From a virus (taxonomy: Duplodnaviria > Caudoviricetes), in IMG/VR virus record IMGVR_UViG_3300048503_000021, positions 32,254-96,253 of that record: a stretch of 64,000 nt of DNA, one strand, 5' to 3'. The notes below the pieces were generated by a model. It did no database searches. It had not been told where the DNA came from and was given only the letters and a program-made list of their open reading frames with translations. The translations under genes were made by a program, and so were the position numbers. Shown here one piece after another: positions 780 to 61,358 of the stretch. Within the stretch, counting starts at the first letter, position 1, and each line of letters starts with the position of its first letter.

Positions 780-793
780 GTCTCGATCCAGAC
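780..793 (+). promoter_or_regulatory. GTCTNNATCCAGAC motif, site 1
   Basis: GTCTCGATCCAGAC, 14 nt upstream of ATG 808. Confidence 0.7.
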
Positions 794-807
794 AAGGTAG
801 TCTTATT

Positions 808-3504
808 ATGCGAACAGCAATTTTGTTTCTCTTAACGGCGCTGGGCTGTCTGGCGCAAGGCACCAGACCTGCGTCAGTTCGGCCCCCATGCTCCGCGACC
901 GTCACGACGAATTGCACGCCGCAAGTGTCCGGAGCGGGAGCGTATGTCCCATACGTCGTGGGCGGCAGTGGTGCCAACCCACTCGGGTTGTTCGTTGTCG
1001 CCGGTGCCGCCAACGCGCCCGCCAATGCCGTGAATCTGGGACTGCTCTCCACGGGGCTGTTGAAGATTGTCGTGGCCGGCCAAATTGCCAGCTTCACGAA
1101 CCCTTCCATCTCGGATCTGTTGTCACTCGGGAGCTGGCCGTGGGCTTCGCTGTCGGGAGTGCCAGCGAGCTTCACGCCCGCGCTGCATGCCGCGACGCAT
1201 GGCAACGCGGGCAGCGATCGCGTTACGTTGGATTACAGCCAAATCACCTCCGGCGCGCCGACGATCCCCGCGGCCTACTCCTCGAGCCCGGCCATGGACG
1301 GCAGCGCGTCAGCCGGGTCCAGCGGCAACTTCGCCCGCGGCGACCATGTGCACCCCAGCGACACCAGCCGCGCACCCACGGCCAGCCCGACGTTCACAGG
1401 TACGGTAACAACGCCGATCACGGGCGGCGGCGTCCAGTGCACTCACGTCAACAATGCGGGTGTCCTCACCGGTACTGGGTCTGACTGCGGCACTGGCGGC
1501 GGCGGGGCCAACTCAGCCGGCTACTATCTGGTCAGCCAGGCGAGCAATGAACCCGCCAACGCCGTCAACCTTGGCCTCCTGACTACGGGCCTGCTCAAGA
1601 CGACCGTCGCGGGCAGCGTGGCGAGCTTCAGCACGGCCACCGCCGGCACGGACTACATGGGCGCGTTCTCGTGGCCCGCGAACGGCTCCATCGTCAAAAT
1701 GGTCAGCGGCGCACCCACGGCAGCCGTGGCGGGCACGGACTACGTCACCCCTTCGGGTAGCATCACCGGCAACGCGGGCACGGCCACGGCCCTTGCCGCG
1801 CTTCCTACGGCCTGCTCGGCGGGGAACTATCCACTGGGCATCCTGGCGAATGGCAACGCTACGGGCTGTACGGCGGCCAACAGCGGGACAGTCACGCATT
1901 CAGCAGGGGCGCTGACGAACACTTACGTACTGGTCGGCAACGGCGGGGCGGACGCGAGCGTGTCGGCGGCCTATGTGGATGGGTCGAACATTCTCAACAA
2001 TCCAGCCGGGTTCAAGAGCGGCGGAGCGGGGAGCGGATCTGTACAACTCGGCGGCGCCACTTCGGGGGCGGTGACAGTCACGGCACAGGCCGCTGCGGGG
2101 ACGTGGACACTCACACTTCCCAACACGCCAGGAACCAATGGGTATGCACTGACGACGGACGGGAGCGGCAATGCGGCATGGGCGGCGATCCCTACGACCC
2201 TACCGCCGAATGGAACGGCGGGCGGCGATCTTGGTGGCACCTATCCTAATCCAAGTGTTTCGCAAATTGGCGGGGCGGTCTTGCCGGCGGCAGGGTCTAT
2301 CACCAAGACCAACAGTAGCGGCCAACTTGTCGCGGCGACGGCGGGGACCGATTACGTACTCCCCGCGGGCAGCATCACGGGTAATGCGTCGACGGCGACG
2401 GCGTTGGCATCCACGCCGACCACCTGTGCGGCCGGCAACTATCCGCTGGGGATCACTGCGAATGGCAACGTAACGGGCTGCACGGCGGCAACGGGTGGAG
2501 GCGGCACGATCACGGGCCCTGGCTCCGCGACATCGGGCTATGTGCCTCTGTGGGGCACGTACCCGGCGCTGACGTTGGGCCTGCCAGTCACGCAATCGAA
2601 CGGCGCGAACTCGATTGTCGAGACGGGCGCGGGCGGCACTATCGCGGCGGCGGCGATCCCGACGCTCAACCAGAACACGACCGGATCGTCGGGCAGCGTG
2701 TTGAATGCCCTCACCCTCAACAACGGCGGCGCGGGCGCGGCCTCGGGTTCGACGTTCAATGGATCGGCGGCAATCACGCTCTCGTACAACACTCTCGGGG
2801 CAGCTCCGCTCGCCTCTCCGACCTTCACGGGGACTGTGACGATTCCCAGCGGCGCGTCCCTCGGCACGCCGACGACCCTCAATGTCTCGAATGCGACCGG
2901 CTTGACGGCCTCGCAAGTGCCCGCCGCGCTCTCCTCTACCACCTCGGTCAATGGCACGAGCATCCCAGCATCTTCCGCGCTGATGACTACCGGCACCACG
3001 CTCGCATCGGGACAGATGCCCACCTTCACGGGGGACGTCACGAACAGCGGTCTGGCTATGACCGTTGGCAAGGTGAACGGGGCAGCAGTCCCAACCAGCA
3101 AGAACTTTCTGGGCTCGAACGGCTCCGGCCAACTCGTCCAAACGACGAACGCGCGCGCCTTCGGCTACAGTTTCAACTCTTCGTCTGCGCTGACGACCGG
3201 CCTGACGGCCTACGGGAATGTCCCCTTCGCCTGCACCATCAGCGCATGGACGATCAGCCTCTCGCCGGCCGACACCGCGACCGTGGACGTGTGGAAGGTG
3301 GCGACGGGTTCGGCAGTGCCGACCGTCTCTAACACCATCACCGCTTCGGCCGTCCCGGCCATCACCACCGGCACCTCGGTGCACTCGTCCACCCTGACCG
3401 GCTGGACGACTTCCGTGTCGGCCAACGATCTGTTCGCCGTCAACATCAAGGCGATTGGCGGAACGGCAACCTTCGTGAATTTGACAGTGGAGTGTGACCA
3501 ATGA
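808..3504 (+). CDS. long Gly/Thr/Ala-rich tail-fibre-like protein with N-terminal signal peptide
   Basis: 898 aa with internal repeats (ANAVNLGLLxTGLLK x2, AGTDY x3, GSITGNA…C.AGNYPLGI.ANGN.TGC x2, ASPTFTGTVT x2). The ARGDHVHP motif is seen in phage fibres. N-terminus is MRTAILFLLTALGCLA-Q. Confidence 0.75.
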   Translation: MRTAILFLLTALGCLAQGTRPASVRPPCSATVTTNCTPQVSGAGAYVPYVVGGSGANPLGLFVVAGAANAPANAVNLGLLSTGLLKIVVAGQIASFTNPSISDLLSLGSWPWASLSGVPASFTPALHAATHGNAGSDRVTLDYSQITSGAPTIPAAYSSSPAMDGSASAGSSGNFARGDHVHPSDTSRAPTASPTFTGTVTTPITGGGVQCTHVNNAGVLTGTGSDCGTGGGGANSAGYYLVSQASNEPANAVNLGLLTTGLLKTTVAGSVASFSTATAGTDYMGAFSWPANGSIVKMVSGAPTAAVAGTDYVTPSGSITGNAGTATALAALPTACSAGNYPLGILANGNATGCTAANSGTVTHSAGALTNTYVLVGNGGADASVSAAYVDGSNILNNPAGFKSGGAGSGSVQLGGATSGAVTVTAQAAAGTWTLTLPNTPGTNGYALTTDGSGNAAWAAIPTTLPPNGTAGGDLGGTYPNPSVSQIGGAVLPAAGSITKTNSSGQLVAATAGTDYVLPAGSITGNASTATALASTPTTCAAGNYPLGITANGNVTGCTAATGGGGTITGPGSATSGYVPLWGTYPALTLGLPVTQSNGANSIVETGAGGTIAAAAIPTLNQNTTGSSGSVLNALTLNNGGAGAASGSTFNGSAAITLSYNTLGAAPLASPTFTGTVTIPSGASLGTPTTLNVSNATGLTASQVPAALSSTTSVNGTSIPASSALMTTGTTLASGQMPTFTGDVTNSGLAMTVGKVNGAAVPTSKNFLGSNGSGQLVQTTNARAFGYSFNSSSALTTGLTAYGNVPFACTISAWTISLSPADTATVDVWKVATGSAVPTVSNTITASAVPAITTGTSVHSSTLTGWTTSVSANDLFAVNIKAIGGTATFVNLTVECDQ

Positions 3505-4016
3505 AAAAACTGCTTTTCTCTCTGATCTTGTTCGCCGGGCTGGCGGTCGCGCAAAGCGGCTTCAGCCTGTCCGGCACATTGAGCGCGGACGCCGTGACGA
3601 ACCTCAACGCCTGGGCCACAACGCAGGTGCAGATGGCGGGCGCGGCCACGGCCACCGCGGCCATCGGGGCCGGGGATACCACCATCACAGTCGCCAACTG
3701 CACCAATGTGGCGGCGGGCGTGACTGTGCTGATCGACGCTGAGGCGGTCTCGACATCGACCTGTAGCGGCAATACCTTGACGGTGGCTGCCAGTGGGCGC
3801 GGCTACTTCGCCACGGCGGCGGCGGCGCACCTCAGCGGCGTGCAGATCGCAGTCTTGAAGTATGCCAGCCTGACGGCGGTGGGGAAGGCGGTGCTCCTCC
3901 AGGCGGTGCAGAACATCGCGCATCAGATGATGCTCGGGAACTACGCGACGTACAAGGCGCAAGCGGCCACCACGCAGACCAATCAGGCGGCGTCCGACGC
4001 GGTGCTGGTGCAGTAA
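3501..4016 (+). CDS. secreted-type hypothetical protein
   Basis: ATGA overlap with the upstream gene; signal peptide MKKLLFSLILFAGLAVA-Q. Confidence 0.75.
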   Translation: MKKLLFSLILFAGLAVAQSGFSLSGTLSADAVTNLNAWATTQVQMAGAATATAAIGAGDTTITVANCTNVAAGVTVLIDAEAVSTSTCSGNTLTVAASGRGYFATAAAAHLSGVQIAVLKYASLTAVGKAVLLQAVQNIAHQMMLGNYATYKAQAATTQTNQAASDAVLVQ

Positions 4017-4018
4017 CT

Positions 4019-6036: not shown

Positions 6037-6090
6037 ACTGAAGGCGAAAAATGCTTTGCTGTGGGGCTCGATTCCAAATAAAGAGAGAGT

Positions 6091-7260
6091 ATGGCCCAAT
6101 TTACAGAGACCCTACAGTCGATGCAGAACCGCGTGTGCAAGCAGCGCATCGGCCTGGACCGGACTCTGGCCGTAGACTTCCTTAACGAGAGGTTGCGGCA
6201 AATACTCGACCGTAAGCCGGATTGGTCTAGTCTACTGAAGCGTAACCTTCTATCCATCCCGCAGGCATACTCTATTGGGACGATTGCGGTTACAACTGGG
6301 TCTACGCTCGTCGCGGGAACAGGCACAAATTGGCCTGTAGATGACGCAGTTAATACCCACATCCAGGAGCCACTACGGGCAGCTAGAACCGTTTGGGTCA
6401 CTCCCGACAGCACTGTCGGCATCACGCCCAGCAGCCTGCTCTACGTGGACTCCGCAGGCCCTTACCCTGAGACTGTAGCCGTGTTGGACATGATGGCAGG
6501 GCGCATCCTGTGCGCCTTTCAATTCCCGCACGAGGCGAACTTCACAGCGACAGCAAGCTCTCTCGTCAATCTTCAGTTGCGTGTCAATTCAATTAACCCA
6601 ATTTTCACCGTGCAGGCGGTAACGAGCCCCACGAGTCTGTATCTAGACAATCCGTGGGGACAGGTTGGCGCTGCGGGGATGGCCTATCAGATTTTGCTAG
6701 CCTATACGCCTTTTGCGGGGGACGTGAAAGAACTGGTTGTCGTTGTGGATAATTTCCAGCAAATCGCGCTCCGGTTGCAGGTATCTCAGGAAGAACTCAA
6801 CCTGTACGACCCGAACCGAACGGCGACTGATTCTCCCAACTGTATTGCCAATTTGGGGCCGAACCTCAACGGCCAGCAAATGTACGAGATTTATCCTCCA
6901 CCGTCAATCCCGTACCAGCTTTCTTACCTTTACCATGCCCGTTGGAAGGGGATGAGGCTCCCAGACGATACTCCTCCTGCGGGAATCAACCCCAATGCCC
7001 TCATATATGGGGCTCTGGCAGATGCCTTTGCTACGCCTTGCCCTCGCCCTCCAGACATGAAGGATGCGTTCTTCAGCCTGGAAACGGCGAATATGTACCA
7101 ATCTCGGTTCGAGCAGGCCGTCATCGAACTTATGACTTCCGAAGAGAGCACATACCAGAAGGCCTTTACTTGGAATTTCGCTCAAACTTGGGGAGGAATG
7201 GGAATGGGTGCGAACTGGGAGCAATCGCACTCGTGGGAAGCGGCGGCTGGAGATTACTAA
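6091..7260 (+). CDS. head-tail adaptor / tail tubular A-like protein with inserted beta-domains
   Basis: Helical N-terminus (…FLNERLRQI…DWS), YEIYPPP…YLY…ALIYGALA C-terminal motif, GTIAVTTGSTLVAGTGTNW insert. Confidence 0.6.
   Translation: MAQFTETLQSMQNRVCKQRIGLDRTLAVDFLNERLRQILDRKPDWSSLLKRNLLSIPQAYSIGTIAVTTGSTLVAGTGTNWPVDDAVNTHIQEPLRAARTVWVTPDSTVGITPSSLLYVDSAGPYPETVAVLDMMAGRILCAFQFPHEANFTATASSLVNLQLRVNSINPIFTVQAVTSPTSLYLDNPWGQVGAAGMAYQILLAYTPFAGDVKELVVVVDNFQQIALRLQVSQEELNLYDPNRTATDSPNCIANLGPNLNGQQMYEIYPPPSIPYQLSYLYHARWKGMRLPDDTPPAGINPNALIYGALADAFATPCPRPPDMKDAFFSLETANMYQSRFEQAVIELMTSEESTYQKAFTWNFAQTWGGMGMGANWEQSHSWEAAAGDY
6635..6648 (+). promoter_or_regulatory. GTCTNNATCCAGAC motif, site 2 (1 mismatch, intragenic)
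   Basis: GTCTGTATCTAGAC. Confidence 0.5.
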
Positions 7261-11016: not shown

Positions 11017-11670
11017 GTGCCGCTTGTTACGCTTGGGAGTCTTATCGGCCGGGTGTACACACGCCTTGATAATAATGGCCTACTCTACCCTCGTCCGGAG
11101 ATTGTCAATGCCATTAACGAAGCGGTCCAGGTCGTCAACCTCTCCACGGGGTTCATCCAAGGCACTTTCCAGATTCCAGGGTGGTCTCAGGTCAACCGAG
11201 TCTGGTACGACACCCCCGCTCAGATCATCATTCCCCTGCGCGTCACGTTCGAGGGCATGTACCTTCAACCGACGACGCTTTGGCAACTGGGCGCTTCTTA
11301 TCCCAATTGGACGGCAGACACAACCAGCAGTGTGGGGCTTCCTGTTTCCTATTGGGTCCCGTGTGGTCTGACGAAGTTCGGGATCTACCCCGCTGATTCC
11401 CTTGGTGGCTGTGACATCAGGGTAACTGGAGTGATGGAGCCGGTCCCATTGGTGGCCGATACGGACATCCTCAATCTCCCCAACGAGTACGCCAGCGCCG
11501 TTGATTTTCTGGCGGCACATACCCTCATGCTGAAGGAATCCTCAACCATCTTTGCACACGGATCGACGGACTATCAGAAGTACCTGTCCGTCAACAAGAA
11601 GATGACAATTTGGAAGGGGTTGACGCAACCGCGCTACTTCTTACCGGAAGCCCAGCAGGCTAAAACATGA
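11017..11670 (+). CDS. adaptor/tail tubular A-like protein
   Basis: LIGRVYTRLD…EIVNAINEA…W…G.P..W…FGIYP…LPNEY pattern. Confidence 0.6.
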   Translation: MPLVTLGSLIGRVYTRLDNNGLLYPRPEIVNAINEAVQVVNLSTGFIQGTFQIPGWSQVNRVWYDTPAQIIIPLRVTFEGMYLQPTTLWQLGASYPNWTADTTSSVGLPVSYWVPCGLTKFGIYPADSLGGCDIRVTGVMEPVPLVADTDILNLPNEYASAVDFLAAHTLMLKESSTIFAHGSTDYQKYLSVNKKMTIWKGLTQPRYFLPEAQQAKT

Positions 11671-12188
11671 CAGATGAATTCCAAGCAAAGCTGATCGCCA
11701 TGCTCTCTACCCATGAGGGCCGCAAAGCATGGATGTATCCCGATACAGCAGGGAACGTCACCGTGGGGGTAGGGCACATGATCCCCTCGCCCGATGCCGC
11801 AACGCAGTTAGGGTTCTCAGACGCCAATCTTGAGACGGCTTCAGAGGAGGATGTCGTCAACGGATGGGGCTTTGTCAAATCCAGCAACCAGGAATACAAG
11901 GCACTGACGCTATCAGACAGCAAAATCAACAATCTCCTAATGGGGGATGTGGCTCACTTCTACCTTGTCTTGATCCAGACTTTCCCAAAGTTTAAGTCTT
12001 ATCCTGAGTCAGCCCAATTGGGCCTCTACGACATGGTATTCAACCTAGGAAGCTTTCGGGCTTTTCCTAGATTTGCGGCGGCTGTGCTGCAACAGAATTG
12101 GGCATCGGCGGCGGCAGAATGCCAGCGTGAAGGCATTGGAGCCGCCCGCAATCAGGATACGAAGAATCTTTTCCTGGAGTGCGCATGA
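11667..12188 (+). CDS. lysozyme (T4/GH24-like endolysin)
   Basis: HEG…MYPDTAGNVTVGVGH (E-x8-D-x5-T catalytic triad) and LYDMVFNLG. Confidence 0.85.
   Translation: MTDEFQAKLIAMLSTHEGRKAWMYPDTAGNVTVGVGHMIPSPDAATQLGFSDANLETASEEDVVNGWGFVKSSNQEYKALTLSDSKINNLLMGDVAHFYLVLIQTFPKFKSYPESAQLGLYDMVFNLGSFRAFPRFAAAVLQQNWASAAAECQREGIGAARNQDTKNLFLECA
11967..11980 (+). promoter_or_regulatory. GTCTNNATCCAGAC motif, site 3 (intragenic)
   Basis: GTCTTGATCCAGAC. Confidence 0.65.
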
Positions 12189-23045: not shown

Positions 23046-26000
23046 ATGCCTAGCGATGTGTTTGCTGAGTATGGGGGTGCTCTTGTAACTGCTCCGCCAG
23101 ATGCCAAGACAGACATCTTTGCGGAGTATGGTGGGAAATCTGTATCTACCCCTAAGCCGAACCTAGCCGCCGCTAGCGCAGAGGCCGAACGGGCTGCGGT
23201 TACGCACATGGGGCCAGTTACCCCTCCGGGGGAAGAAAAGCGACCGCTCTCAACCGTGCCTGGGGCAGAGAAAACGGGGCTACCTGGGGTGCCGTTGGTG
23301 GGCACATACCGGCCCATTATCCCGATGGGAGTTCCGCAACCGCAGGTTCCGTATGGGCTGCAATCTCCCGAAGAACAAGCAAAGAGCGCCCCTCAGTTTA
23401 CAAACCCGCGCACGGGAGCAAAGTCCCCTCGCGTGCCTCCAGGCCAAGAGGGCGGGCCAGTCTCTTGGATGACCGACATGCCGATCACTGGGGCTCAGCG
23501 GGTGGTGGCTGGCGTTGAGGGGTTGGGCAAGCCTGCGGAAGCGTTTGCCACCCCCGACAAGCCGGGTGGCTACGGCAACAAACTGACGCCTGAACTGAGG
23601 AAGCAGGCCTCTGCCGCTGGGACGGAAATCATAACTGGCGGGCTGGAGGTAGCGACTCCGTTTATGATCGCGGGCGCAGCCGTTGCGCCGGTTACGGCGC
23701 TCAAAGCCGTTGGCCTGTACGCGGGGACGGAATATGCTACCCGCAAGGGGCTTGAGTCGGCTGGAGTTGCTCCAGAACATGCTCGATTCTTCGGCCAAGT
23801 GGCCGGGCTGGCTTCCGGCTCTATCCCCATCGGCCTGAAGATCATCGACGCAAGGCTGGAAGCGCACAACGAAATTGCCGAGAAGTTGTTCCAGGAAGAA
23901 GCCGAAGGCGGGCAACGTATCGAGAAGATGCGCGATGTTATCGCTCAGAGCCCTGAGATCGCTAAGCCCATCCCCGTATCCATTGGCGGCAAACCGCATG
24001 AGATTCGCTTCCTGGATGTTGGCAAGAACGGACGTCTCTCCCGCGAGGTCATTGATCTTAAAACAGGGAAGCGCGTATATGCAGGATACGACAAGGCCGT
24101 TTCTGGATGGCTCCATATCCATGCCGACGCCGAGCAAGGTCCTGTCGTAAAACTGACGGTTAAGGATGCTACGGGCAAGGTAATCGAAGAAGGGCTCATC
24201 ACCCCAGAGCAAGCCGACTTTGCCAAAGACCTTGTGGCGTCTAAGGCTCCCGACCACACCGTAACGATTGAGCCGGTCGAGCAAGCGCCGAAACCAGCCG
24301 CCGAAGCCGCCACTACGGAACCGCCCGTAACGTCAAAGAAAGGAGGTTCTGAGCGTGTCACGCCCGAAGGGCAACAGCCCGGAAAGGAAGTGATCCAGCC
24401 ATCTAGCGCGGAGGCCCCTGCCCCGAAGACAGAGGCGGGGGCTACTGCGCCTACGGCGGATTTCAAGCCGGGGCAGGTATGGAACTTAAACGGCGGGGCT
24501 TACGCTGTCACCAGCATCGAGGCCGACGAATCCGGCAAGCCTATCGTTAAATACGACTTCACCGGGCCGAAGGGGAATAAGAACCCCAACCAGAAGATCC
24601 CCCTTGCTGCGTTTACCAGCATGATGTCGAAGGGCAAGCTCCAGGGTGCGGCAGAGGGCACTGCTGCGCCACCAGCGGCGGCGGAGCCACCGGCCAAGGC
24701 GGAAGCGGCCAAGCCCGTAGAGATGCCGTCAGAGGCCAAGGCAGAGCCAATTAAGCCGCCGCTCAAGCCGAAGCCTGCGCCGAAGCCCGTTGAGTCTGCA
24801 TCCAGACAAGCGCCGCCTGCTGATGCGGCTAAGTCCGAATCTACACCCGCGAAGGTAGCCGGGGTTATATCTAGGGAAAGCAACAACTTACCGAATAAAG
24901 CCCCCCCCGAGGTGGCCACCCCTAAGGCCGTGACCGAGCCACCCGCGCCGAAGCTCGACCCTGAAGAACTCCCTGCGATGAAGCGGCTTAGGGCGGCAGG
25001 GCAAGCCATCTCCGACACGGAACTGACGCAGCTTCAACTGCCCAAGGCCAAAGTGATACTGGCGAAGCTCAAGCAGGTAGGGGAAGCTGCATTAGCGGAG
25101 GCCGACAAGCAGACCGATCCCAGCGCAGCGGCAGAGCTAAGAAGGGTTGCGGCAGAGACGGACAAGCGGGCGGAGAGCATCCGCAACAGGGCGAAGGTGC
25201 TGGAGCAAGAGCAGGCGGCGAAGGCCGCGCCGAAGGCGACACCAGCACCGCCTACTACACAAAACGCTCCCTCAAATGAGGCGAAAAAGCAGGAAGTAGC
25301 GGCTGATAACTTAACAGAGGGCAACGAGTTAAGTTCTGCGTCTGTAAAACCTGCTCAGATTATTCCAAAAGATATTCCTCCCGTGACGAGAGCCAAGGCA
25401 GCAGACTTCAAGGTGGATTCCGCGAAGCCGGAAGATCTGGTTGCATCACAGGACTTCCAGAAATGGGCTGGAGATCCCAACCAAAAGCGTTCTTTCCGCG
25501 ATACCTACGGGGACGCCATCCGCATTGCGGATCAAATCCGAGATGCTATCAAGAGTGGGCGTCCAGCCGCTACTATTGAAGCGCAGAGAGAGGCATTAAG
25601 GGAGGCTCTTGAAGAGATCGGCGTGAAGGCGGAAGCCAAGCCCACGGATCTCATATCGATTCCAGCTAGATCGAAATCCCGCGATACGGACAAGGGCTAT
25701 GAACAGTGGGCAAAGGATGTCCACAACCTGAGCCTGTCCACCTACCGAGACAAGACACCATTCGCGCCAAGTGACTTGACGAAGCTAACGGATACACAAC
25801 TGGAGGATCTGAAGTCGGCTGTCGATGAGGCTGCGTCTTGGCACCCCAAGGTCCAGCCCGGTAGAGATCTGGTCTTCACCTCGCCAGAGCAAGCGGCGTC
25901 GATGAAGTGGTGGGACAAGCAGCGGGACGACATCAAGAAGGAGTTCTGGAGGCGTGGAGAGCCAGCACGCGAGGCCGAGAAGCAGGCGAACAAGGTCGCG

Positions 26001-34488: not shown

Positions 34489-34538
34489 ATTATTATCCTA
34501 TTGGGCTCGCGTGTCAAGCCCCTTGTCTGGATACAGAC
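34489..34538 (-). promoter_or_regulatory. sigma70-type promoter (TTGACA-17-AATAAT) with motif site 6 just upstream
   Basis: TGTCAA at 34512-34517 on the + strand; GTCTGGATACAGAC at 34525-34538. Confidence 0.65.
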
Positions 34539-36686: not shown

Positions 36687-37130
36687 TTAGCGCCAGGAAA
36701 TCATCAGCCCGCACTTGGTGCACTGAAAAAGCTTAGGCATGACCCTAGCTAATTCGTGGACGCAATCATTCAACCCGTGAGTGACCACGCAGTACTCGGT
36801 TAATTTCGAGACTATTTCCACTTCTTCCAAGTTTTCGTTGTATGGTTTCACAGTTGCCATGTCTTTTCCTAAAACACCTTGTTTCTTAGTCATCGAGGGC
36901 TTCGTGGGATCGTCTACTGGGTTTTCATTGATAGCGATACTTGCATTTGCCCACTGCACGCACTTCTGAAGGTCCGTCAGGGCCAAAGACTTCTCCCTTG
37001 ACTCAGGGCAGGCCCCGTCAATCAGGAAAGAAAATTCCTTGGCTGCTTCACGAATCTTGATATACCGTTCGGATTGATTCCCGACCGGGGCATGGTACGT
37101 GAAGACGTTCTCGATCTGCTCTTTAGTCAT
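36687..37130 (-). CDS. Acb2/Tad1-like helical-hairpin protein with C-terminal Cys/His extension
   Basis: FTYHAP…RY..IR..AK…CPESREKSLALT.L…WANASIA. Confidence 0.65.
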   Translation of the reverse strand: MTKEQIENVFTYHAPVGNQSERYIKIREAAKEFSFLIDGACPESREKSLALTDLQKCVQWANASIAINENPVDDPTKPSMTKKQGVLGKDMATVKPYNENLEEVEIVSKLTEYCVVTHGLNDCVHELARVMPKLFQCTKCGLMISWR

Positions 37131-38470: not shown

Positions 38471-38964
38471 TTCAGGACCGTCTCGGCAGCGGTGATGGCG
38501 ACGGCAAGGGCGCTCCAAGTGTCGGCAGAGAAGCCGTGTAGCACTCCGTAGCCGGTCTTCTTTGTACCGATAGCCTTATCCTTGCCGCCGTACCTGTCTA
38601 TAATGGCCTGACGGATGTTAGTGTCTTTGGCTTTCATGTTTCCGCAGAGATGGATTTTCACGGCTTTGCGAGGAATCCTCACCACAGAATCGAGGCCGAA
38701 AGCCTGAGCGAAGATGCCGCTCCAATAGACCGTCTCGAAGATCTCAGCCCCGACCGCCATCCCGTAACTGGCGACTTGTTCAATCGCGCAGTACTCAACG
38801 TCGCCATAAGGCCACTTAACCGGATCTTCCAGTTCTTCGATTGCTTTAAGAAGGATCTTGTTGGGAATTTTATTGAACCCGTAGGGGACAGGAGCCTTAG
38901 TCTCGGTGTCGTATGAGACATAGGCGCTGGAATCTGGTCCTGGATCGATAGCTAGAATCTTCAT
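38467..38964 (-). CDS. RuvC-like Holliday junction resolvase
   Basis: MKILAIDPG…AIE…AKD…D.WSALAVA. Confidence 0.8.
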   Translation of the reverse strand: MKILAIDPGPDSSAYVSYDTETKAPVPYGFNKIPNKILLKAIEELEDPVKWPYGDVEYCAIEQVASYGMAVGAEIFETVYWSGIFAQAFGLDSVVRIPRKAVKIHLCGNMKAKDTNIRQAIIDRYGGKDKAIGTKKTGYGVLHGFSADTWSALAVAITAAETVLK

Positions 38965-40383: not shown

Positions 40384-40728
40384 TTATCCCCCATGTTCCG
40401 GGCCGTGGCATTTAGCGCACAGCCCTTCCACGTTGTCTCGATCCACGCGTCCGTGACTGCGGTAAATTTTGTGGTGTCCCTGGAGGGCCTTCCGCAAACC
40501 GCACCGGGCGCATTTCCACTCCTGAAGCTCAAACACTCGCAGGCATTCGGCCTTGTAAAATGCCTTTACTAGATTCCCGATGGCCTCATCTTCTGTCTCG
40601 CCGTAAACATAAAGCCCCGAGCCGAAGTACTCGCCCGGAACGATGTAGGCGTCCCAGGTGCCATTGGCCGACAACTGCGTAACGGCGATCTCAGACGCGA
40701 TGATGCGCTCCGCCCGTCTCTTAGTCAT
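40384..40728 (-). CDS. HNH endonuclease
   Basis: CARCG…HHKIYRSHG…NVEGLCAKCH. Confidence 0.8.
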   Translation of the reverse strand: MTKRRAERIIASEIAVTQLSANGTWDAYIVPGEYFGSGLYVYGETEDEAIGNLVKAFYKAECLRVFELQEWKCARCGLRKALQGHHKIYRSHGRVDRDNVEGLCAKCHGPEHGG

Positions 40729-41489
40729 CAGCCCCGCTCGGCGTCGTGAACCTTCGCGAGCCATTCGGTTTCGCACTCATCCATCAGCCGGGCCAGGATC
40801 ACACCTTCGCTGTCGGAGTCGCAATAGGCCTGAATTTCAGCCAACCCCACAAACTCATGCCAGCGATTCCAAACATCCTCTGCCACGTAGATCATTAGGG
40901 CCTTGGTGCTCAGTTCTCCCTTGTCGCCCTGTGTCTCGGTTTCGATCTTCTCGGCAAGCTGCTTGACGGTCGTCGTCGAAGATTCTGCCGCCGCAACCCA
41001 GTAGTCGCGTTTCGTCTGCACCATGTCCACGCTCATGCCCTCTTGGGTGCTCCGCTTGAGCGCGGTTGCCAGCAGATTCAGTTTGGAAAACCCCATCTGC
41101 TCCATCTTGTCGGCGGGCAGAAAATTCAACTGCTCTGCCACCTTGATACAGTTCCAGGCTTCGGGGCGGCTGATATTGAAAAGCTCTGGGACACCCCGCG
41201 TGATGAACTCGCTGAAGGTGGTGTAGCCCTGCTGCTCGTACAGGTGCTTATGCTGGCGTACCAGCATCAGGATACGCCCTAAGAAGGGCTTCAGCCGGGA
41301 AACAGCCTGTTGCGCTCGGGAAAGCCCCTTGGTGACGACATTGAGATACAGCCAGACGTTCTCTGCACTCAGATCCTCTGGGATCGCCTCGATTGAGGGG
41401 CGCTCCGAAGTGATAAGCGCTTGCCAAACCGCCTGTTCTGCCTCGGTGAAAATGGGGAGATTGGAAGTCGTTGCAGGTAGGGTAGACAT
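40728..41489 (-). CDS. putative HTH DNA-binding protein
   Basis: LGRIL…LY…GYTTFSEF…FNISRPEA…IKVA…GFSKL pattern found in phage HTH/ParB-associated proteins. Confidence 0.55.
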   Translation of the reverse strand: MSTLPATTSNLPIFTEAEQAVWQALITSERPSIEAIPEDLSAENVWLYLNVVTKGLSRAQQAVSRLKPFLGRILMLVRQHKHLYEQQGYTTFSEFITRGVPELFNISRPEAWNCIKVAEQLNFLPADKMEQMGFSKLNLLATALKRSTQEGMSVDMVQTKRDYWVAAAESSTTTVKQLAEKIETETQGDKGELSTKALMIYVAEDVWNRWHEFVGLAEIQAYCDSDSEGVILARLMDECETEWLAKVHDAERG

Positions 41490-41498: not shown

Positions 41499-41552
41499 AC
41501 GCTGCCACAGACGCGCATTGTTGTCAACCCCTTAATGTGTCTGGATCAAGAC
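41499..41552 (-). promoter_or_regulatory. promoter (TTGACA-17-CAGCGT) with motif site 8 just upstream
   Basis: TGTCAA at 41522-41527; GTCTGGATCAAGAC at 41539-41552. Confidence 0.55.
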
Positions 41553-42883
41553 TTTTCTTCTTCGGTCGCATCCTCAAATTGCATCCGCCAGCCAATGTAC
41601 CGCATCGGGACGTGCGCGCTTTCGCCGTTCCTGATTTTGTCGAGAATAAACACAGCCTTGCCTCGCAGGGCGTCGTTGTCGCGGTTGTAAAGCTCTTCGC
41701 GAAAGATCAGACCGCCAACGTCGGCAATCTGTTCTATTGCTCCCGATCCCCGAAAATCACTTAGCTCCGGCTTACGCTTAGTCTTGGGAGCATCGCGAGA
41801 CAACTGGCTCAGTAGGATTATCGGGACATGGACCCTTTTGGTGATGTCTTGAATATCGAGGCAGATAGAACTTAACCTCTCATCCCCGGAAAGCCTAGTG
41901 TTGTTAGCCTTCATAATCTGGATATAGTCCAGGATTGACAGCTTGATGTGGAACTTCTCGATCATCGACTCAATCCTGGTGTGATACTCAGACGGGCTGA
42001 TCCCAGAACGGGCATCCATATAGATGGGCAACTCGTAGATGACAGAGCTTGCCTCCGCCAGTTTCTTCTCTTCAAGCTCTGAAATCTGCCCGCGCCGGAA
42101 GCGCATAAAGGACACGCCCGCTTCTGTGCAAATAAGCCGGTAGAAAAGGCTCCGCTTGCTCATTTCCAGAGAGAATATGGCGACAGGATCGCCGCCACCG
42201 GCAACGTGCCGCGCGATGTTAAGGGCCATCGCCGTCTTGCCAGCCCGCGCCGTTCCGCCTATGACCCAGATCTCGTCGTTGTGGAACCCGTCCGTTGCCT
42301 CGTCTACGCCTTTGAAGCCCGTCAGGATTCCAGGCTCATGTAGGGGGGGGTTGAGGAGGTGGTCAATCCCGTCTGGGTACGTCTCGATGTAATGGGCTAC
42401 GCTCTCTGGGCCGTCCCTCTCGGTGTCGTCAACCGCGTCTCGCAGGTTCGCCGTCAGGGAGCCGACAATCTTCTGTGGCTCCTCCTGCCCTAAGAAACTG
42501 CGCTGCATCGCCTCGTTGGCTAAGAAGATGATGCGCCTGCGGGCCGTCAGTTTCTTTAGGATGTCAACATAGGAAGCATAGTTGGGGATGTCTGGCATCC
42601 CGTCCGCTAGGCTGACGATGTAGCTCAGCCCACCGACCCGCTCTAGATTCCCTCGCGACAGGAGATAGTCGTGGAGCGTCACTTCATCGACGGCCACACC
42701 CTTGCGGCTTAGGTCTTGGATTGCGGAGAAGAGGTGGCGGTTGGCTTCCAGGACAAAATCATCTGTAGACAGCTTCGTAGCAATCTCTAAGGTGACGCCC
42801 TTATGCTTAGAGCACCAGCAGGTTGCTAGGCAGATTTTCTCTGCGTAAGTGTTTGAGGGGAGTCCCCGCTCTTCTTCAGGCAT
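41546..42883 (-). CDS. dnaB: replicative DNA helicase
   Basis: N-terminal DnaB domain; GKTAMALNIA, FSLEMS, DYIQ, LSQLSR, PELSDFRGSGAIEQ.AD, K.RNG. Confidence 0.95.
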   Translation of the reverse strand: MPEEERGLPSNTYAEKICLATCWCSKHKGVTLEIATKLSTDDFVLEANRHLFSAIQDLSRKGVAVDEVTLHDYLLSRGNLERVGGLSYIVSLADGMPDIPNYASYVDILKKLTARRRIIFLANEAMQRSFLGQEEPQKIVGSLTANLRDAVDDTERDGPESVAHYIETYPDGIDHLLNPPLHEPGILTGFKGVDEATDGFHNDEIWVIGGTARAGKTAMALNIARHVAGGGDPVAIFSLEMSKRSLFYRLICTEAGVSFMRFRRGQISELEEKKLAEASSVIYELPIYMDARSGISPSEYHTRIESMIEKFHIKLSILDYIQIMKANNTRLSGDERLSSICLDIQDITKRVHVPIILLSQLSRDAPKTKRKPELSDFRGSGAIEQIADVGGLIFREELYNRDNDALRGKAVFILDKIRNGESAHVPMRYIGWRMQFEDATEEEKS

Positions 42884-42888: not shown

Positions 42889-42902
42889 GTCTGGATACAG
42901 AC
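42889..42902 (-). promoter_or_regulatory. GTCTNNATCCAGAC motif, site 9
   Basis: + strand GTCTGGATACAGAC, 5 nt before the dnaB ATG. Confidence 0.75.
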
Positions 42903-48519: not shown

Positions 48520-48533
48520 GTCTGGATACAGAC
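48520..48533 (-). promoter_or_regulatory. GTCTNNATCCAGAC motif, site 10 (extended palindrome TCAGTCTG-GATA-CAGACTGA)
   Basis: Lies in the leader of the initiator gene, next to its AGGAG RBS. Confidence 0.75.
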
Positions 48534-53410: not shown

Positions 53411-53476
53411 GTCTGGATACAGACACGTAAAATGTCCCACAAAAACACTTGACATGCGAGCGGGACGTGGTAGCAT
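53411..53476 (+). promoter_or_regulatory. motif site 11 followed by promoter TTGACA-16-TAGCAT
   Basis: GTCTGGATACAGAC at 53411-53424; TTGACA at 53449-53454. Confidence 0.65.
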
Positions 53477-53811: not shown

Positions 53812-54957
53812 TCAGCTAAAGCAGACGGCTTCTCGCGAAACGCTTGGGTACAAACTCCCTACGTTGACTCGCGAAGGCAGAGTCCCTGCCCTTTGGAGGA
53901 TGACTTGAGAACTAACGAGATCCCGAGATCCAGACAATCCGCACTTGGGGCACGAGTGCCAGCGGTTGTTCAGCCGCTTTGGCACAGTCGCTCCGCATGT
54001 GCATGTTTGGCTCGTACCGCTCGGGTTCACAGCTACCATCTCTCGCCCAGCACTTGCAGCCTTGTACGAAAGGAACTGGTAAAACATGCCCCAACCGGCG
54101 TCGTGAACGGACTTCGCCAGCATACCGCCAGAAAGCCCCTTCACGTTCAGATCTTCGACTGCGATCAGACCAAACTTGTTGACAATCTTCCGAGACTCTT
54201 TGTGCAGGAAGTCGGCCCTCTGGTTGGAGATATGCGTGTGAACGATCTGCAACTCTTGCACGGCCTTCCTGCGCCGGTTGCTTCCCTTGCGACGTCTGGC
54301 AACCTTCCGTTGCGACCGTCTCAGTTTTGCCTGAGACTTCCTGTAGTAGCGCGGGTTTTCAATCTCCGTCCCGTCCGACAGGACGGCAAACGTCGTCAAT
54401 CCGACATCGATCCCAACGGATTCAGAGGAATCGGGGATAGGGCAAGGATCACACTCGACCGCGAAGCAGACGTACCACTTCCCGGATTGGCGCTTCAACG
54501 TCACCGTCTTAATGCGTCCCTCAATCGGGCGATGCAGTTTGACCTTGAGGAGTCCGGCCCCTTGTATGCGGAGCTTCCCATCGTCTATCAACCTGCAACC
54601 ATCTCCGTAGGAGGGGAAGGTAATGCTGTCAAAACGCTGGAACGGCTTGAACCGGGGGAAGCCAGTTTTCTTTCCTTCCCTCAGGCGACGGAAGAAGGCT
54701 TGGTATGCCTTGTCCACGCGGCGAAGGACATCCTGGCAGCAAGAGAAGTTGGCAAGTTTAACCAATCCCTCCGCCCGCATGGCCTTCAGTTGGTTGGCTT
54801 GGTCGTAGTAGTTGATCGACTTCCGGCACGTCTTCCAGGCCCCGCGCCGCTCTTCAATGGCGCAATTGTAGAGATCACACGCCTCGTTCAGTTGCCAGTT
54901 AAAGAACGCAACTTGGACTCTGGTTGGATAAACCCGATATTTGAACGAACTGAGCAT
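53812..54957 (-). CDS. tnpB: RNA-guided endonuclease TnpB (copy 1)
   Basis: FKYRVYP, GFPRFK, RuvC-I GIDVGL, RuvC-II VEDL, TSQTC..CG…CPKCG, RuvC-III RD. Confidence 0.95.
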   Translation of the reverse strand: MLSSFKYRVYPTRVQVAFFNWQLNEACDLYNCAIEERRGAWKTCRKSINYYDQANQLKAMRAEGLVKLANFSCCQDVLRRVDKAYQAFFRRLREGKKTGFPRFKPFQRFDSITFPSYGDGCRLIDDGKLRIQGAGLLKVKLHRPIEGRIKTVTLKRQSGKWYVCFAVECDPCPIPDSSESVGIDVGLTTFAVLSDGTEIENPRYYRKSQAKLRRSQRKVARRRKGSNRRRKAVQELQIVHTHISNQRADFLHKESRKIVNKFGLIAVEDLNVKGLSGGMLAKSVHDAGWGMFYQFLSYKAASAGREMVAVNPSGTSQTCTCGATVPKRLNNRWHSCPKCGLSGSRDLVSSQVILQRAGTLPSRVNVGSLYPSVSREAVCFS

Positions 54958-54958
54958 A

Positions 54959-57020: not shown

Positions 57021-57096
57021 TGGCGAGTCGTCCAACTGGTTAAGATGCTTGACTTTGACTCAAGAGATGTAGGTTCAAGTCCTGCCTCGCCAGCCA
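57021..57096 (+). tRNA. tRNA-Gln (anticodon TTG)
   Basis: Acceptor stem TGGCGAG/CTCGCCA, anticodon arm CTTGA-CTTTGAC-TCAAG, T-loop GTTCAAGT, encoded CCA. Confidence 0.92.
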
Positions 57097-57763: not shown

Positions 57764-58906
57764 TCAGCGACTTCCAAGGCCATGCAGAGCAATCTCCACA
57801 TTACGGCCTTCAGGTGGCATCCCCACCTGTCCACGGGCAAGGATGACTTGCGCCGCAGCGTGATCTCTATGCGCGGTGTACCCGCAGGGGCAGACGTGCT
57901 GCCGCTGGCTTAGGATCTTTTTCGCTACGGCCCCACAAGAGGGACACGTTTGAGAAGTGTACGCCGCATTAACTTCGACTACCTCAACCCCGGCCCATTC
58001 TGCCTTGGATTTAAGGATATTCAGGAAGCTGCCCCAGCCAGCGTCCAGAACAGCGCGGGCAAGCCGGTGATTCTTGGACATCCCAGAGATGTTCAAGCTC
58101 TCCACCGCGATCAACCCGTACTTGTCTACCAACTTTCGAGCAATCTTATGATGCTGGTCGCACCTGTAGTTTGCAACCGAGGCGTGTGTGGCAATGACAG
58201 CACGCCGAGCGTTGCGTCGTCCTCTACCGCCCTTATTCCTTCGATCCATGCGCCTCTGCTGGACTCGCAGTTTGCGGAGCTTCCACTTGAGCGGCTGGAG
58301 GGGCGCTATGTGCTCTCCATCCGAAGTTGTCAGGAAGCTCTCGATTCCCAAGTCAATCCCGACGGCGGCAGTATTTTTATTTTCAACTGCCACTTCGCCA
58401 AGATCGCAGACAATCACGACATACCACTTCCCGGCTTCGCGCTTTACCGTGATCGTCTTGTGCTTTCCTTCAGTGGGACGGTGCAGCCGCACGCGGACCA
58501 ACCCGACGTGCTGCAAGCGAAGTTTATTCCCGATCAGCCTAACACCGTGCGGCACTTGGGGGTAGGTAAAGCTATCGAATCGGTCTCTGCTCTTAAACCT
58601 CGGGTATCCGGGCTTTTCTCCGGCCTTACAACGCCTAAAAAAAGCAGCAAAGGTGGTATCCAGACGGTTCATCGTGGCCTGAGCGCTTTGCGCGTTGAGA
58701 CGCGCAAACCAAGGATTGATTTTATTCTCCCTTGCGAACCATTTGGCTTGATCGCGGTACTTGATCGACTTCTTTTCGATTTCGTAGGCCGTTTTTCGCT
58801 GTGCAAGGCACTGGTTATAGAGACGCCTGTGTGTCTCCAGCGTGATCTCCAACTCCCGCGTCTGGTTGACGTTAGGATAGAGGCGGTACTTGTACGCTTT
58901 GTACAT
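57764..58906 (-). CDS. tnpB: RNA-guided endonuclease TnpB (copy 2)
   Basis: YKYRLYP, GYPRFKS, GIDLG, VESL, TSQTCPSCG…CPCG…HRD; RuvC triad intact. Confidence 0.95.
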   Translation of the reverse strand: MYKAYKYRLYPNVNQTRELEITLETHRRLYNQCLAQRKTAYEIEKKSIKYRDQAKWFARENKINPWFARLNAQSAQATMNRLDTTFAAFFRRCKAGEKPGYPRFKSRDRFDSFTYPQVPHGVRLIGNKLRLQHVGLVRVRLHRPTEGKHKTITVKREAGKWYVVIVCDLGEVAVENKNTAAVGIDLGIESFLTTSDGEHIAPLQPLKWKLRKLRVQQRRMDRRNKGGRGRRNARRAVIATHASVANYRCDQHHKIARKLVDKYGLIAVESLNISGMSKNHRLARAVLDAGWGSFLNILKSKAEWAGVEVVEVNAAYTSQTCPSCGAVAKKILSQRQHVCPCGYTAHRDHAAAQVILARGQVGMPPEGRNVEIALHGLGSR

Positions 58907-59145: not shown

Positions 59146-59148
59146 CGT

Positions 59149-59162
59149 GTCTGGATACAGAC
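59149..59162 (-). promoter_or_regulatory. GTCTNNATCCAGAC motif, site 12
   Basis: + strand GTCTGGATACAGAC. Confidence 0.75.
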
Positions 59163-59333: not shown

Positions 59334-59343
59334 AAGCGGGCAC

Positions 59344-59374: not shown

Positions 59375-59400
59375 CCGGGGAGCCGGTATGCGGATGGAGG

Positions 59401-59798: not shown

Positions 59799-60108
59799 TG
59801 GACGCCTCCGACCTATAGGCCCACGATTGCCGCGCTATCTCGCTCAACTGTTCCCACGTTTTGCGGGGTGCGCCGTCGTGATAGTAGGGTTGTCTTCGCA
59901 CGTCTGCTTCATAGTCGGCCCGCCCGCACTCGGGAAGCCCCGTTGCAATTGCGGCAGTGATCTGGTTATGAGCGTCCTCAGCGGAAACCTTCAGGGCTTC
60001 GACAAGTGGGAACGTCCCGTAATTGAAAACAAAGGTCCGCGTCTCGCCGCGAAAGGTGGTTTTCACTAAGCGCGTTTCCATGTCAATCTCGGTCAGGTAT
60101 TTTAGCAT
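59788..60108 (-). CDS. hypothetical protein
   Basis: Own GGAGG RBS before MLKYLTE; P.YHDG.PRKTW.QL…SW motif. Confidence 0.6.
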   Translation of the reverse strand: MLKYLTEIDMETRLVKTTFRGETRTFVFNYGTFPLVEALKVSAEDAHNQITAAIATGLPECGRADYEADVRRQPYYHDGAPRKTWEQLSEIARQSWAYRSEASSAS

Positions 60109-60119
60109 CGGACCTCCAA

Positions 60120-61322
60120 ACGCTTTGAGTGGGCTAGACTTGGGACTAGCCCCATGCGCGTTAGATCGGGCCGCAAGGCCCGATCCCCTCCGCTTAGCAA
60201 GGCCCGCCAGTGTGTCACCAGCGGAGCGAGAGCCGTCAGCATCCCACGCATCAAGCGTGGCAGTCCCGAAGCCTGCCGGAAGTTCCAGGCGTTTAACCAG
60301 CCGGGAAAGAATCTCCCCACGGGTGGGCGATTCTTGCGGGAATGGCGTGTTGTAGGCATCCCCGAAGGCCAGCACGAACGGGACAACGGCATCGAGCGCC
60401 GTGCGGATGGCAGAGCGGAACTTTGCCGCCGCTTCCCCAACGTGCATGATGCTGATTTCCTGGTCCATCCCCTCACCCCATGCTGTTGTGAAGTTGAGGC
60501 AGAGGACGCGGAGAATCTTGGGGACAATGCGGATGCTGGATTGTTTCGTCTGGGAGTTGGCGACGTGCAGGGCGACCAGGGCAATGTCCCCCACTTTCAA
60601 CTCACGGGCCATCGTCGGCCAGATCACCTCTACGTCGCTCCGTGATTCGGTTTGGGTGAAACGGACCTTTGCCCCTGCTGGCAGAACAGCGTCTAAGCCG
60701 GTCAGAAGGTCGTGGTCTTCAACTCCGGTGTAACGGTTGGAGACTACGGCATTCAAGGACCGCCGCAGGATAACGCCATTAGCGCTCGCTTGCGGGGTCA
60801 AAACGGTGCGGAGTACCGCTTCGCGCTGTTCGGAGTTGTAGGCATTCTCCGCGCAGTAGTTGAAGGCATCTGCGCGGATAGCCGGGGGCAGAGCTAACAG
60901 GGTGGAAGCGAACCCGCCCGAAACGCTGGCAGGCTTCACGAACGATGCGGCCTGATTGAAAGCCGTTGCGGTGTAGGCGAGTGGGGTCTTGTTCGGGTCG
61001 CAGTTGCGGCCATGGATTCCGCCATTGTCGGCCCTCATGCGGAGGTCGTAGATTTGAACTTGGGTGTCAATCGGCCGCTGTTCGGTGCGGATGGCTCGCA
61101 GTGTAGCCGCAGCCGTCGCCACGTCGGGAAGCGCGGCTATCTCTTCTTTGAGTTCCCCGCGCCCGCTGTTCTCCGTAGGGAATCAGCGACTCGCCTTCCG
61201 GTACGATGGTATTGGGGAGCCTTATCCCCGTGGTAGCCGAAAGCTGCTTGAGGGTTTCCATGCGAGTTGTGAAGTCGGCCCCCGCGACGGAGCCGGAAAA
61301 CGTGCTAGTCAAAGTGGAACAT
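60120..61322 (-). pseudogene. DUF932-like protein, frameshifted
   Basis: AVVSNRY…NS…SI…LRVLCLN…H.G motif. Two apparent +1 insertions near the 5' end; the 3' end reads through into the next gene. Confidence 0.6.
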
Positions 61323-61344
61323 TGATTCAGCCTCCATTCGATCT

Positions 61345-61358
61345 GTCTGGATCCAGAC
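61345..61358. promoter_or_regulatory. GTCTNNATCCAGAC motif, site 13 (perfect palindrome TGTCTGGATCCAGACA)
   Basis: Immediately upstream of the GGAGG RBS of the DUF932-like gene. Confidence 0.75.

Follow-up and report, generated by a model that had tools for sequence, protein, structure and literature searches.

A dispersed, polar dyad motif in a tailed phage genome and a predicted ParB/KorB-like protein as its candidate reader

Short sites scattered over a whole replicon have been described in a few systems, and these are the closest counterparts of the element discussed here, a 14-bp motif, GTCTNNATCCAGAC, that recurs throughout a tailed phage genome, IMG/VR record IMGVR_UViG_3300048503_000021 (G000 below). 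Cluster A mycobacteriophages, of the L5 gp71 type, carry dozens of 13–14 bp operator or stoperator sites genome-wide, at promoters and in short intergenic spaces, whose orientation correlates strikingly with the direction of transcription and which co-evolve with the phage's own binder (PMC9283540, PMC6550527). They set a precedent for polar, intergenic, genome-wide repressor sites (PMC9283540). Cluster O mycobacteriophages, which are not obviously temperate, have more than 30 copies of a 17-bp dyad, TGTTCGGNNNCCGAACA, between genes, near starts and inside genes; the repeat is absent from the host, and neither its function nor its binder is known (PMC4351075). On plasmid RK2, the ParB-family helix-turn-helix (HTH) of KorB, a global transcription regulator, reads a 13-bp palindrome at about 12 OB operators on a 60-kb replicon, some adjoining promoters and others distant from them (PMC11790492). 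The stretch that we analysed, called the window below, comprises 64,000 nucleotides (nt), bases 32254–96253 of the record, which is linear, 96,253 bp long and estimated to be 96% complete; positions refer to the window unless marked "genome". We found that the motif is a strongly enriched, conserved and polar dyad, and we discuss whether it forms an operator network read by a protein of the phage itself.

All 13 copies listed in the initial annotation of the window, including a degenerate one at 6635, were recovered. Exact matches to GTCTNNATCCAGAC start at 780, 11967, 24794 and 28154 in the + orientation and at 34525, 37784, 41539, 42889, 48520, 53411 and 59149 in the − orientation, and there is a perfect palindrome at 61345. 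Dinucleotide shuffles contained 0.01 matches on average, with none of 100 reaching 13. In its reduced form, GTCT-N6-AGAC, the dyad is found at exactly 16 sites in the whole 96,253-bp genome, against about 1.2 expected from 4-mer counts, and 16 of 16 are this motif, three of them to the left of the window (genome 13923 (−), 16721 (+) and 26370 (+)); no other 4+N+4 dyad in the genome comes near its enrichment. A compositional or coding artefact can be ruled out, since 200 codon-preserving shuffles fell short of the observed count, with a mean of 0.445 and a maximum of 4 intragenic GTCT-N6-AGAC sites against 8 observed, and a mean of 0.05 against 7 for the specific motif. The initial annotation had named equal frequency in such shuffles as a refutation; they gave no such result. 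The earlier remark that intragenic copies are read in different frames also stands, as all three frames are used.

The same dyad is the top-enriched one not only in G000 but in G003, G004, L254, L255 and L256, and it keeps this rank in relatives down to 45% DnaB identity. For instance, there are 9 copies in 35 kb of G003/G004, whose terminase is 69% identical, 6 copies in 15 kb of L254 and 9 copies in 21 kb of L255/L256. In R255, a relative of about 100 kb with a 45% identical DnaB, the 57 kb that could be rebuilt from overlapping loci hold 16 copies and the reversed-pattern control does not occur there at all. When 47 oriented sites are compared, GTCT and AGAC never vary and 46 sites have A7; in the 45 bp to each side, no position beyond −1 to +15 reaches more than 0.25 bit. 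Lineages other than that of G000 share the consensus A-GTCT-KGACGT-AGAC-T (we give the ancestral form as GTCTTGACGTAGAC), while in the G000 lineage it is a-GTCT-GYATCC-AGAC-A, so that the inner bases and the +1 flank have been rewritten in concert at all sites. Orthologous sites, such as those in the portal leader, in the fibre-gene leader past the terminator and before the gene of a 253-amino-acid (aa) protein discussed below, keep their place while the core changes. Because the inner bases and the +1 flank changed together at every site, a co-evolving trans factor is indicated, and the lineage-wide rewrite looks like the signature of a phage-encoded reader.

More distant left-arm fragments, L248 and G005 (terminase 47% identical), lack GTCT-N6-AGAC. 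They contain instead GTAT-N6-ATAC with the same rAA 5′ flank, in four copies within 22 kb of L248 (9234, 9896, 13024 and 16617) and two within 23 kb of G005 (13327 and 17712), along with hybrid GTAT...AGAC sites. This may be a further switch of the half-site, although we regard it as a lead that is not significant alone. In three Blastocatellia metagenome-assembled genomes (MAGs) resembling the candidate host, 67–116 sites were found per 6–10 Mb, below the reversed-pattern control; a host-wide motif is thus ruled out for these three, and the motif appears to be phage-specific. An exact-pattern scan of IMG/VR with GTCTGTATCCAGAC returned single chance matches only, plus one relative, and GTSCAACGTTGSAC, the motif of another phage of about 104 kb, was absent from all loci examined here. 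At one orthologous site, past a DUF6745 gene (L254:6071 and L255:8413), a longer GC-rich hairpin has the motif as its tip, and the flanks of that hairpin differ between the two loci.

The orientation of the copies follows transcription to a large extent. Thirteen to 14 of the 15 asymmetric copies in G000 point with the local genes (14 of 15 gives a two-sided P of about 0.001 by our own arithmetic), as do 12 of 16 in R255, where the majority orientation again switches at the convergence point; pooled, 26 of 31 are co-oriented, with P about 1e-4 by the same arithmetic. One copy clearly breaks the rule, that at genome 13923, which opposes the local + genes and is kept, reversed, in the relative G002 despite a diverged promoter spacer. 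The copy at 53411, within a divergent region and directed away from the + promoter beside it, is ambiguous. The polarity is thus real but not absolute: the flip at about 31.7 kb that was originally described holds within the window but not as an absolute rule, given the reversed copy at genome 13923, the ambiguous one at 53411 and the + genes that occupy 53.4–57.7 kb.

Composition cannot account for this polarity, because the coding strand is A-rich, yet the sense copies have T or C at the deviating position, and because TGA and TAG stand in two sense frames of the family consensus, so that coding constraints should make antisense copies the commoner ones. That the core is asymmetric at all is another matter. 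Six-bp palindromes are avoided genome-wide, ten of them occurring at most once where 10–47 are expected (zero occurrences of ATTAAT, CAGCTG, CGTACG, CTGCAG, TGATCA and TTTAAA; single ones of GGGCCC, CTCGAG, GAGCTC and ATGCAT), which suggests heavy type II restriction pressure in the host. GGATCC, which the perfect form of the motif contains, occurs twice in 96 kb against about 29 expected, one of the two being the palindromic copy. A symmetric inner hexamer would always be a 6-bp palindrome of this kind, so that the asymmetry of the core must, at least in part, be forced. The choice of the half that deviates is free of this constraint, and it is there that the polarity resides.

In placement, the copies favour gene boundaries. 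Seven of the 16 are fully intergenic although 12.5% of the genome is non-coding (binomial P about 0.002, our arithmetic), and three more overlap gene ends, bringing the number at boundaries to 10 of 16; the statement that many copies abut promoters or start codons is thus borne out. Each of the three best sigma70-like promoters of the whole genome lies within 115 bp of a copy. The best one, TTGACA-17-AATAAT at 34517–34489, has its −35 box 7 nt downstream of the copy at 34525–34538 (−), which occupies the last codons of a methyltransferase gene. Another sigma70-like promoter, TTGGAA-18-TATAAT, lies about 113 bp upstream of the 42889 copy, and a + promoter, TTGACA-16-TAGCAT at 53449–53476, has its −35 box 24 nt from the copy at 53411–53424 (−), which sits beside a hairpin in the divergent control region. 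In four cases (34525, 41539 and the sites in L261 and L263), the motif is 7–11 nt upstream of a TTGACA box, while the genome 13923 copy overlaps the −10/start region of the promoter of a sigma operon (TTGACA-17-GAAAGT, genome 13896–13924).

Other copies are found in leaders, 5–18 nt ahead of the start codons of dnaB, the replication initiator, the portal gene and the fibre gene. The dnaB case required a correction to the gene start: the gene runs from 41546 to 42883 (−) and not to 42931, where the longest open reading frame (ORF) over-extends it by 16 codons, as a database product of 445 aa, 100% identical, starts at the ATG at 42883. The copy at 42889–42902 (−) is therefore intergenic, within the 25-nt spacer from the TAG of the upstream gene to the true dnaB ATG, which comes 5 nt past the motif. 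In the leader of the replication initiator, the copy at 48520–48533 (−) follows a promoter-like site by about 97 bp and precedes the GTG (48501) by 18 nt. The intergenic copy at 780–793 (+), GTCTCGATCCAGAC, stands 5 nt past a terminator-like hairpin with a T-run and 14 nt ahead of the ATG of a fibre-like gene (808, 898 aa). The order of terminator, motif, ribosome-binding site and ATG recurs in G003 (28369) and R255 (22433), and copies directly past terminators are found at these sites and at G003 22746; among close relatives of the 780 site, the inner bases vary and GTCT/AGAC is retained. An idea that such copies mark linkers of module exchange was rejected, as the homology break between G000 and its relatives G001 and G002 falls about 70 nt past the 780 copy and not at it.

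The copy at 41539–41552 (−), GTCTTGATCCAGAC, provides the dnaB stop codon with its positions 5–7 (TGA) and is followed by a TTGACA box after 11 nt and by the ATG of the 253-aa gene after 50 nt; it has positional orthologues in L254, L255, L261 and L263. Near the right end of the window, the copy at 59149–59162 (−) adjoins a bidirectional terminator-like hairpin about 100 nt upstream of a small-ORF/tnpB cassette, and the sole perfect palindrome, GTCTGGATCCAGAC at 61345–61358, is intergenic and 222 nt upstream of a DUF932-like gene. The remaining copies in the window lie within genes: the degenerate GTCTGTATCTAGAC at 6635–6648 (+) in gene 6091–7260, GTCTTGATCCAGAC at 11967–11980 (+) in gene 11667–12188 (read as VLIQT), GTCTGCATCCAGAC at 24794–24807 (+) and again at 28154–28167 (+) in the gene of a giant protein (both read as ESASRQ, with unrelated flanks) and the copy at 37784–37797 (−) in a TPR-glycosyltransferase gene, 37127–38518. 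Placed in so many different ways, the motif looks more like a regulator site than like a promoter element of fixed geometry.

Among the possible binders proposed at the outset, the one named first, the product of 40728–41489 (−), is the one that has gathered evidence, and its binding to the motif is what we infer from it; the replication initiator and the giant protein gained no support. This 253-aa protein is encoded next after dnaB, in synteny in all right-arm relatives, and has a motif copy directly upstream in five lineages (G000, L254, L255, L261 and L263). A structure model built from a 50-sequence alignment (pLDDT 94, pTM 0.80) and compared with known structures using VIA-align and Foldseek predicts plain helices at residues 16–60, a ParB/KorB/SopB-type HTH at 66–190 and a ribbon-helix-helix-like C-terminal domain at 196–253. 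Seven ParB-family DNA-binding-domain entries are among the top 30 structural matches, all over residues 62–191: ParB-parS (6s6h, Z 6.8, root-mean-square deviation 2.9 Å over 96 aa), KorB (8qa8 and 1r71, Z 6.2 and 6.1, with 95 residues superposed), Spo0J (1vz0, Z 6.1), VirB-DNA (3vwb, Z 5.7), SopB-DNA (3mky, Z 4.8) and P1 ParB-DNA (1zx4, Z 4.7). The weight lies in the recurrence of one family over one domain of the model and not in single Z values. Residues 196–253 superpose on ribbon-helix-helix dimers (MazE6, Z 5.5; pCXC100 ParB, Z 5.1; MatP, Z 4.4).

The family of the 253-aa protein, for which we collected 315 cluster representatives, shares a conserved stretch, GxSRxxAYxxxxxA...P.L......IG..KL..L, that to our own reading resembles the ParB HTH signature. 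In the putative recognition helix, the G000 type has IKVAE and the L255 type LRIAE. It has no Pfam ParBc match, so that no N-terminal CTPase domain of ParB was seen, and an atlas search with the protein gave weak leads only. A parallel comes from an unrelated 54.7-kb phage fragment, IMGVR_UViG_3300047160_001822 (G009, locus L264). That phage has a homologue with 27% identity and a dispersed dyad of its own, the GTC-N8-GAC palindrome GTCCGAT(N0-1)ATCGGAC, in six copies (control 0). One of the six is in the leader of the homologue, flanked by a TTGACA-17-GATACT promoter and the ATG, and three others are inside genes.

Given its enrichment, conservation and polarity, a protein–DNA system, as the initial annotation proposed, is the best explanation for a motif that is phage-specific, selected and polar. 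Our preferred form of this explanation, to which we give about an even chance, is that a dimeric protein of the phage itself, probably the ParB/KorB-like 253-aa protein, reads the dispersed sites as an operator network, with orientation-dependent, stoperator-like effects on transcription. The motif would be the recognition site of a sequence-specific binder of double-stranded DNA, and the sites together would form a genome-wide network of operators. The most likely binder is the 253-aa protein, whose HTH domain would contact the DNA while the ribbon-helix-helix-like tail dimerises, each subunit reading one outer half-site, (A)GTCT. A dimer fits because the outer dyad is invariant and extended to AGTCT/AGACT. 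The conserved, non-symmetric inner six bases could tune the affinity and give the complex a direction. From host-type promoters, short leaders and gene interiors, the bound protein would then modulate transcription in an orientation-dependent manner, as the L5 stoperators do, by repression or activation at promoters and elsewhere by hindering the elongating RNA polymerase, and it would also regulate its own gene.

Several points weigh against this proposal. A symmetric dimer alone does not explain a conserved asymmetric core and polarity. The 253-aa protein and its family have no match in Pfam, PHROG or the PDB sequences; the structural Z values of 4.7–6.8 are moderate and, for helical proteins, may mean a mere common arrangement, and although Foldseek lists the same ParB family first, all its E values exceed 0.5. 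The parallel comes from G009 alone, where, by our estimate, a site would fall within 100 bp of any given gene with a chance of about 1%. Co-occurrence does not single out the 253-aa protein either, as an extracytoplasmic function (ECF)-type sigma factor is also present in all motif-bearing lineages. Many copies are far from any recognisable promoter, and several lie past terminators, 5–16 nt before starts, where a compact promoter or an RNA element would fit too. Finally, our protein-family scans (Pfam, PHROG), which took in about 100 of the 115 predicted proteins of the 96% complete record, part of the small ORFs among them, showed no integrase or CI-type repressor, which makes silencing of the L5 lysogenic kind doubtful; for the same reason, lysogenic immunity, as one form of the immunity suggested in the initial annotation, gained no support.

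Another possibility is that the sites are parS-like docking or loading sites for the organisation of DNA, whether by partitioning a plasmid-like state, by compaction, by shielding injected DNA or in the logistics of replication and packaging. The binder could be the same 253-aa protein, with its predicted ParB-family DNA-binding fold, or the giant virion protein (23046–31706 (+), 2886 aa), which has a ddrB-ParB domain at residues 1277–1411. The dispersed and fairly even spacing, one site per 2–6 kb, with many copies inside genes and far from promoters, would suit such a role, and the authors of the Cluster O study argued that the dyad repeats of those phages are unrelated to the initiation of transcription (PMC4351075). 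Nevertheless, sites that only organise DNA would not be expected to follow the direction of transcription or to gather at promoters and gene boundaries. No ParA was found among the roughly 100 scanned proteins and the candidate shows no N-terminal CTPase domain of ParB, which also leaves the original suggestion of partition without footing. Furthermore, the giant virion-module protein of R255 (L258:11861–19504) has, in place of the ParB-like domain, a complete beta sliding clamp (residues about 990–1347, E 9e-29 to solved clamps), yet R255 retains the motif. The exchange of clamp and ddrB-ParB domain looks like domain swapping in a polyvalent protein; the G000 giant protein itself had no match among PDB sequences. 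We thus consider the parS-like explanation rather unlikely.

A compact, self-contained promoter or transcription start element, read by the host RNA polymerase with a phage ECF-type sigma factor or another appropriator, or by an unrecognised phage RNA polymerase, is a further possibility. T7-like genomes, with their scattered 23-bp promoters, offer a comparison, and the lineage-wide concerted change of the motif resembles the switch in promoter specificity between T7 and T3. Polarity with transcription is seen in two genomes (13–14 of 15 and 12 of 16 copies), and copies stand 5–16 nt before starts and right past terminators with nothing else conserved between. The phage ECF-type sigma factor (genome 14694–15503, with regions 2 and 4) is kept in all motif-bearing lineages; in R255, its gene has been relocated to the end of the leftward arm. 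However, the 47 sites reveal no second conserved element within 45 bp on either side, which rules out a bipartite −35/−10 promoter of the ECF-sigma type, with boxes 16–17 bp apart, and no RNA polymerase was recognised in our scans of large proteins. In a promoter, outer half-sites with invariant two-fold symmetry would serve no purpose; some copies are reversed, many are in the middle of genes, and several are immediately upstream of separate, good sigma70-type promoters. A promoter role is therefore unlikely in our judgement.

The motif might instead act as RNA, in the form of a short hairpin with a GUCU/AGAC stem that is recognised by an RNA-binding protein or a ribonuclease of the phage or host, with effects on processing, stabilisation or translation. 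Sense polarity and nearness to start codons would be expected in that case, the orthologous L254/L255 site at the tip of a longer hairpin fits it, and in a few cases an AGGA resembling a Shine-Dalgarno sequence precedes the motif, so that a hairpin could shorten the distance from there to the ATG. Against this, the stem is invariant in the 47 sites, without covariation, and only 4 bp can form in most lineages (−2.9 to −3.7 kcal/mol). Sense folds are weaker than antisense folds for every G000-lineage variant and most others, and Rfam finds no match at the copies, its sole match in the window being a tRNA at 57021–57093. Moreover, there are reversed copies, and copies upstream of promoters would not be transcribed with the gene that they precede. 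On balance, a role as RNA seems distinctly improbable.

Phages often borrow regulators of their host, and a host factor rather than a phage protein could in principle bind the motif; we find this very hard to maintain, since the three Blastocatellia MAGs show no enrichment and a concerted change of sequence between close phage lineages is difficult to square with a conserved host protein. Scarcely credible is a polar signal linked to replication, of the KOPS, Ter, Chi or priming-site type, with orientation following the fork on a circular map: all 15 asymmetric copies do fall into two arcs on such a map of G000 (the − copies from 66.8 kb onwards, across the end, to 13.9 kb; the + copies between 16.7 and 60.4 kb), a slightly better fit than gene strand, but with both switch points left free, about 0.6% of random arrangements would do the same (our arithmetic), four exceptions in R255 form no arcs, the initiator gene and its leader at 79–81 kb are away from the switch points, GC skew does not switch at 14–16 kb, known polar signals are short and not dyad-symmetric, and no evidence links the motif to the directional DNA handling of this kind that had been suggested.

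Turning to the genome as a whole, the ORF-based map of G000 has 115 genes. Rightward genes span genome 1 to 63,959 and include a methylase/helicase block, the ECF-type sigma operon, terminase-like, portal, major-head and tail genes and the gene of the 2886-aa protein, while leftward genes, among them transferases, dnaB, the replication initiator and RecT/exonuclease, span genome 64,175 to 85,218. The right end is of mixed strands and has two tnpB genes (OrfB_IS605/Cas12f-like), at 53812–54957 (−) and 57764–58906 (−), with a tRNA-Gln (anticodon TTG, 57021–57096 (+)) between the two cassettes. TnpB, in the first of these genes, is 60–65% identical to copies in Blastocatellia MAGs, and the closest cellular DnaB proteins, at 37% identity, are from Bryobacteraceae; these similarities are weak leads to Acidobacteriota as the host. 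A megablast of 12 kb of G000 against GenBank phages found no match, and IMG/VR single-protein scans with the replication initiator and with DnaB found no relatives.

Two further features deserve mention. A 147-aa protein encoded at 36687–37130 (−) contains an Acb2/Tad1 hairpin domain (E 3e-15) and is likely a sponge against cyclic-nucleotide defence signalling, judging from this similarity. In addition, a second motif, CGATT-N5-TAAMG, occurs in four copies at genome 26346, 30201, 38322 and 52820 (the last two at 6069 and 20567 of the window), 7–33 nt ahead of a start codon in each case (portal, major head and two genes of the tail region), and a similar box is also kept ahead of the G003 portal gene.

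As to why such a motif matters, when a phage is uncultured and only its sequence is at hand, a genome-wide network of a single motif is one of the few means of learning how its genes are regulated, and the evolution of this motif can be traced over deep divergence, in which each lineage has rewritten the core but kept the outer half-sites. It also comes with a concrete candidate binder from a large unannotated family with a predicted ParB-like fold. If that protein is indeed the binder, the family would acquire a name, repeats of the Cluster O type would have a candidate answer, and there would be a handle on gene control in phages of soil hosts resembling Acidobacteriota; if it does not bind, the promoter and RNA explanations become live options. 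It is also conceivable, if rather doubtful at present, that the whole family (at least 315 sequence clusters, with no Pfam model) consists of global phage regulators in which a ParB/KorB-type HTH and a ribbon-helix-helix tail read dispersed, polar GTC-N8-GAC dyads and act directionally on transcribing RNA polymerase in non-temperate phages, a stoperator-like mechanism with a dimeric binder of ParB fold that would have evolved independently.

How, then, does this phage compare with the known systems? There is no homology in sequence or protein with L5, and no gp71-like protein was noticed in the Pfam and PHROG scans. The two nevertheless have in common dispersed copies, placement at promoters and between genes (10 of 16 at gene boundaries in G000), co-orientation with transcription and sites that co-evolve with the binder. 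In contrast to the perfect dyad of the outer half-sites in G000, the L5 site is fully asymmetric and is bound by a monomer with an HTH and a second domain, while the G000 candidate has a predicted ParB/KorB fold with a ribbon-helix-helix-like tail; L5 is also temperate and has an integrase, for which the roughly 100 G000 proteins offered no counterpart. Cluster O phages resemble G000 in an invariant inverted repeat around a variable centre, with dispersed copies, that is absent from the host, as well as in their glycosyl- and methyltransferases, a protein with a ParB-like domain and a beta clamp. They differ in the sequence of the repeat, in its geometry (7+3+7 instead of 4+6+4) and in having little orientation bias and an A/T-rich, unconserved centre, whereas the centre in G000 is conserved within the lineage and polar.

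With KorB, the likeness is in the several dyad sites of 13–16 bp per replicon (16 in G000, of 14–16 bp, with inner six bases that are not palindromic) and in the central domain of the candidate, which superposes on the KorB DNA-binding domain (Z 6.1–6.2) at the level of the fold only. KorB has, however, an N-terminal CTPase clamp domain and a ParA partner, IncC, neither of which was seen in the G000 scans, and OB sites are symmetric and non-polar. The C1 repressor of P1, a temperate phage with a plasmid prophage and a genome of about 94 kb, acts on many dispersed operators, which are 17-bp asymmetric sites, and N15 has a full ParAB system with four dispersed centromere sites for its ParB-type protein that also influence transcription. 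G000 is thus similar to P1 in the use of dispersed operators by a single phage protein, if our proposal is right, and to N15 in scattered ParB-type sites that would affect transcription. Consequently, the initial description of the system as undescribed holds for the motif sequence and for the family of the candidate binder but not for the kind of system, which is already known from L5 stoperators, Cluster O repeats and KorB OB sites. What is new is this particular motif, its deep and traceable evolution, the candidate binder family and the combination of dyad symmetry with transcription-linked polarity, two properties that are not found together in either the L5 or the Cluster O precedent.

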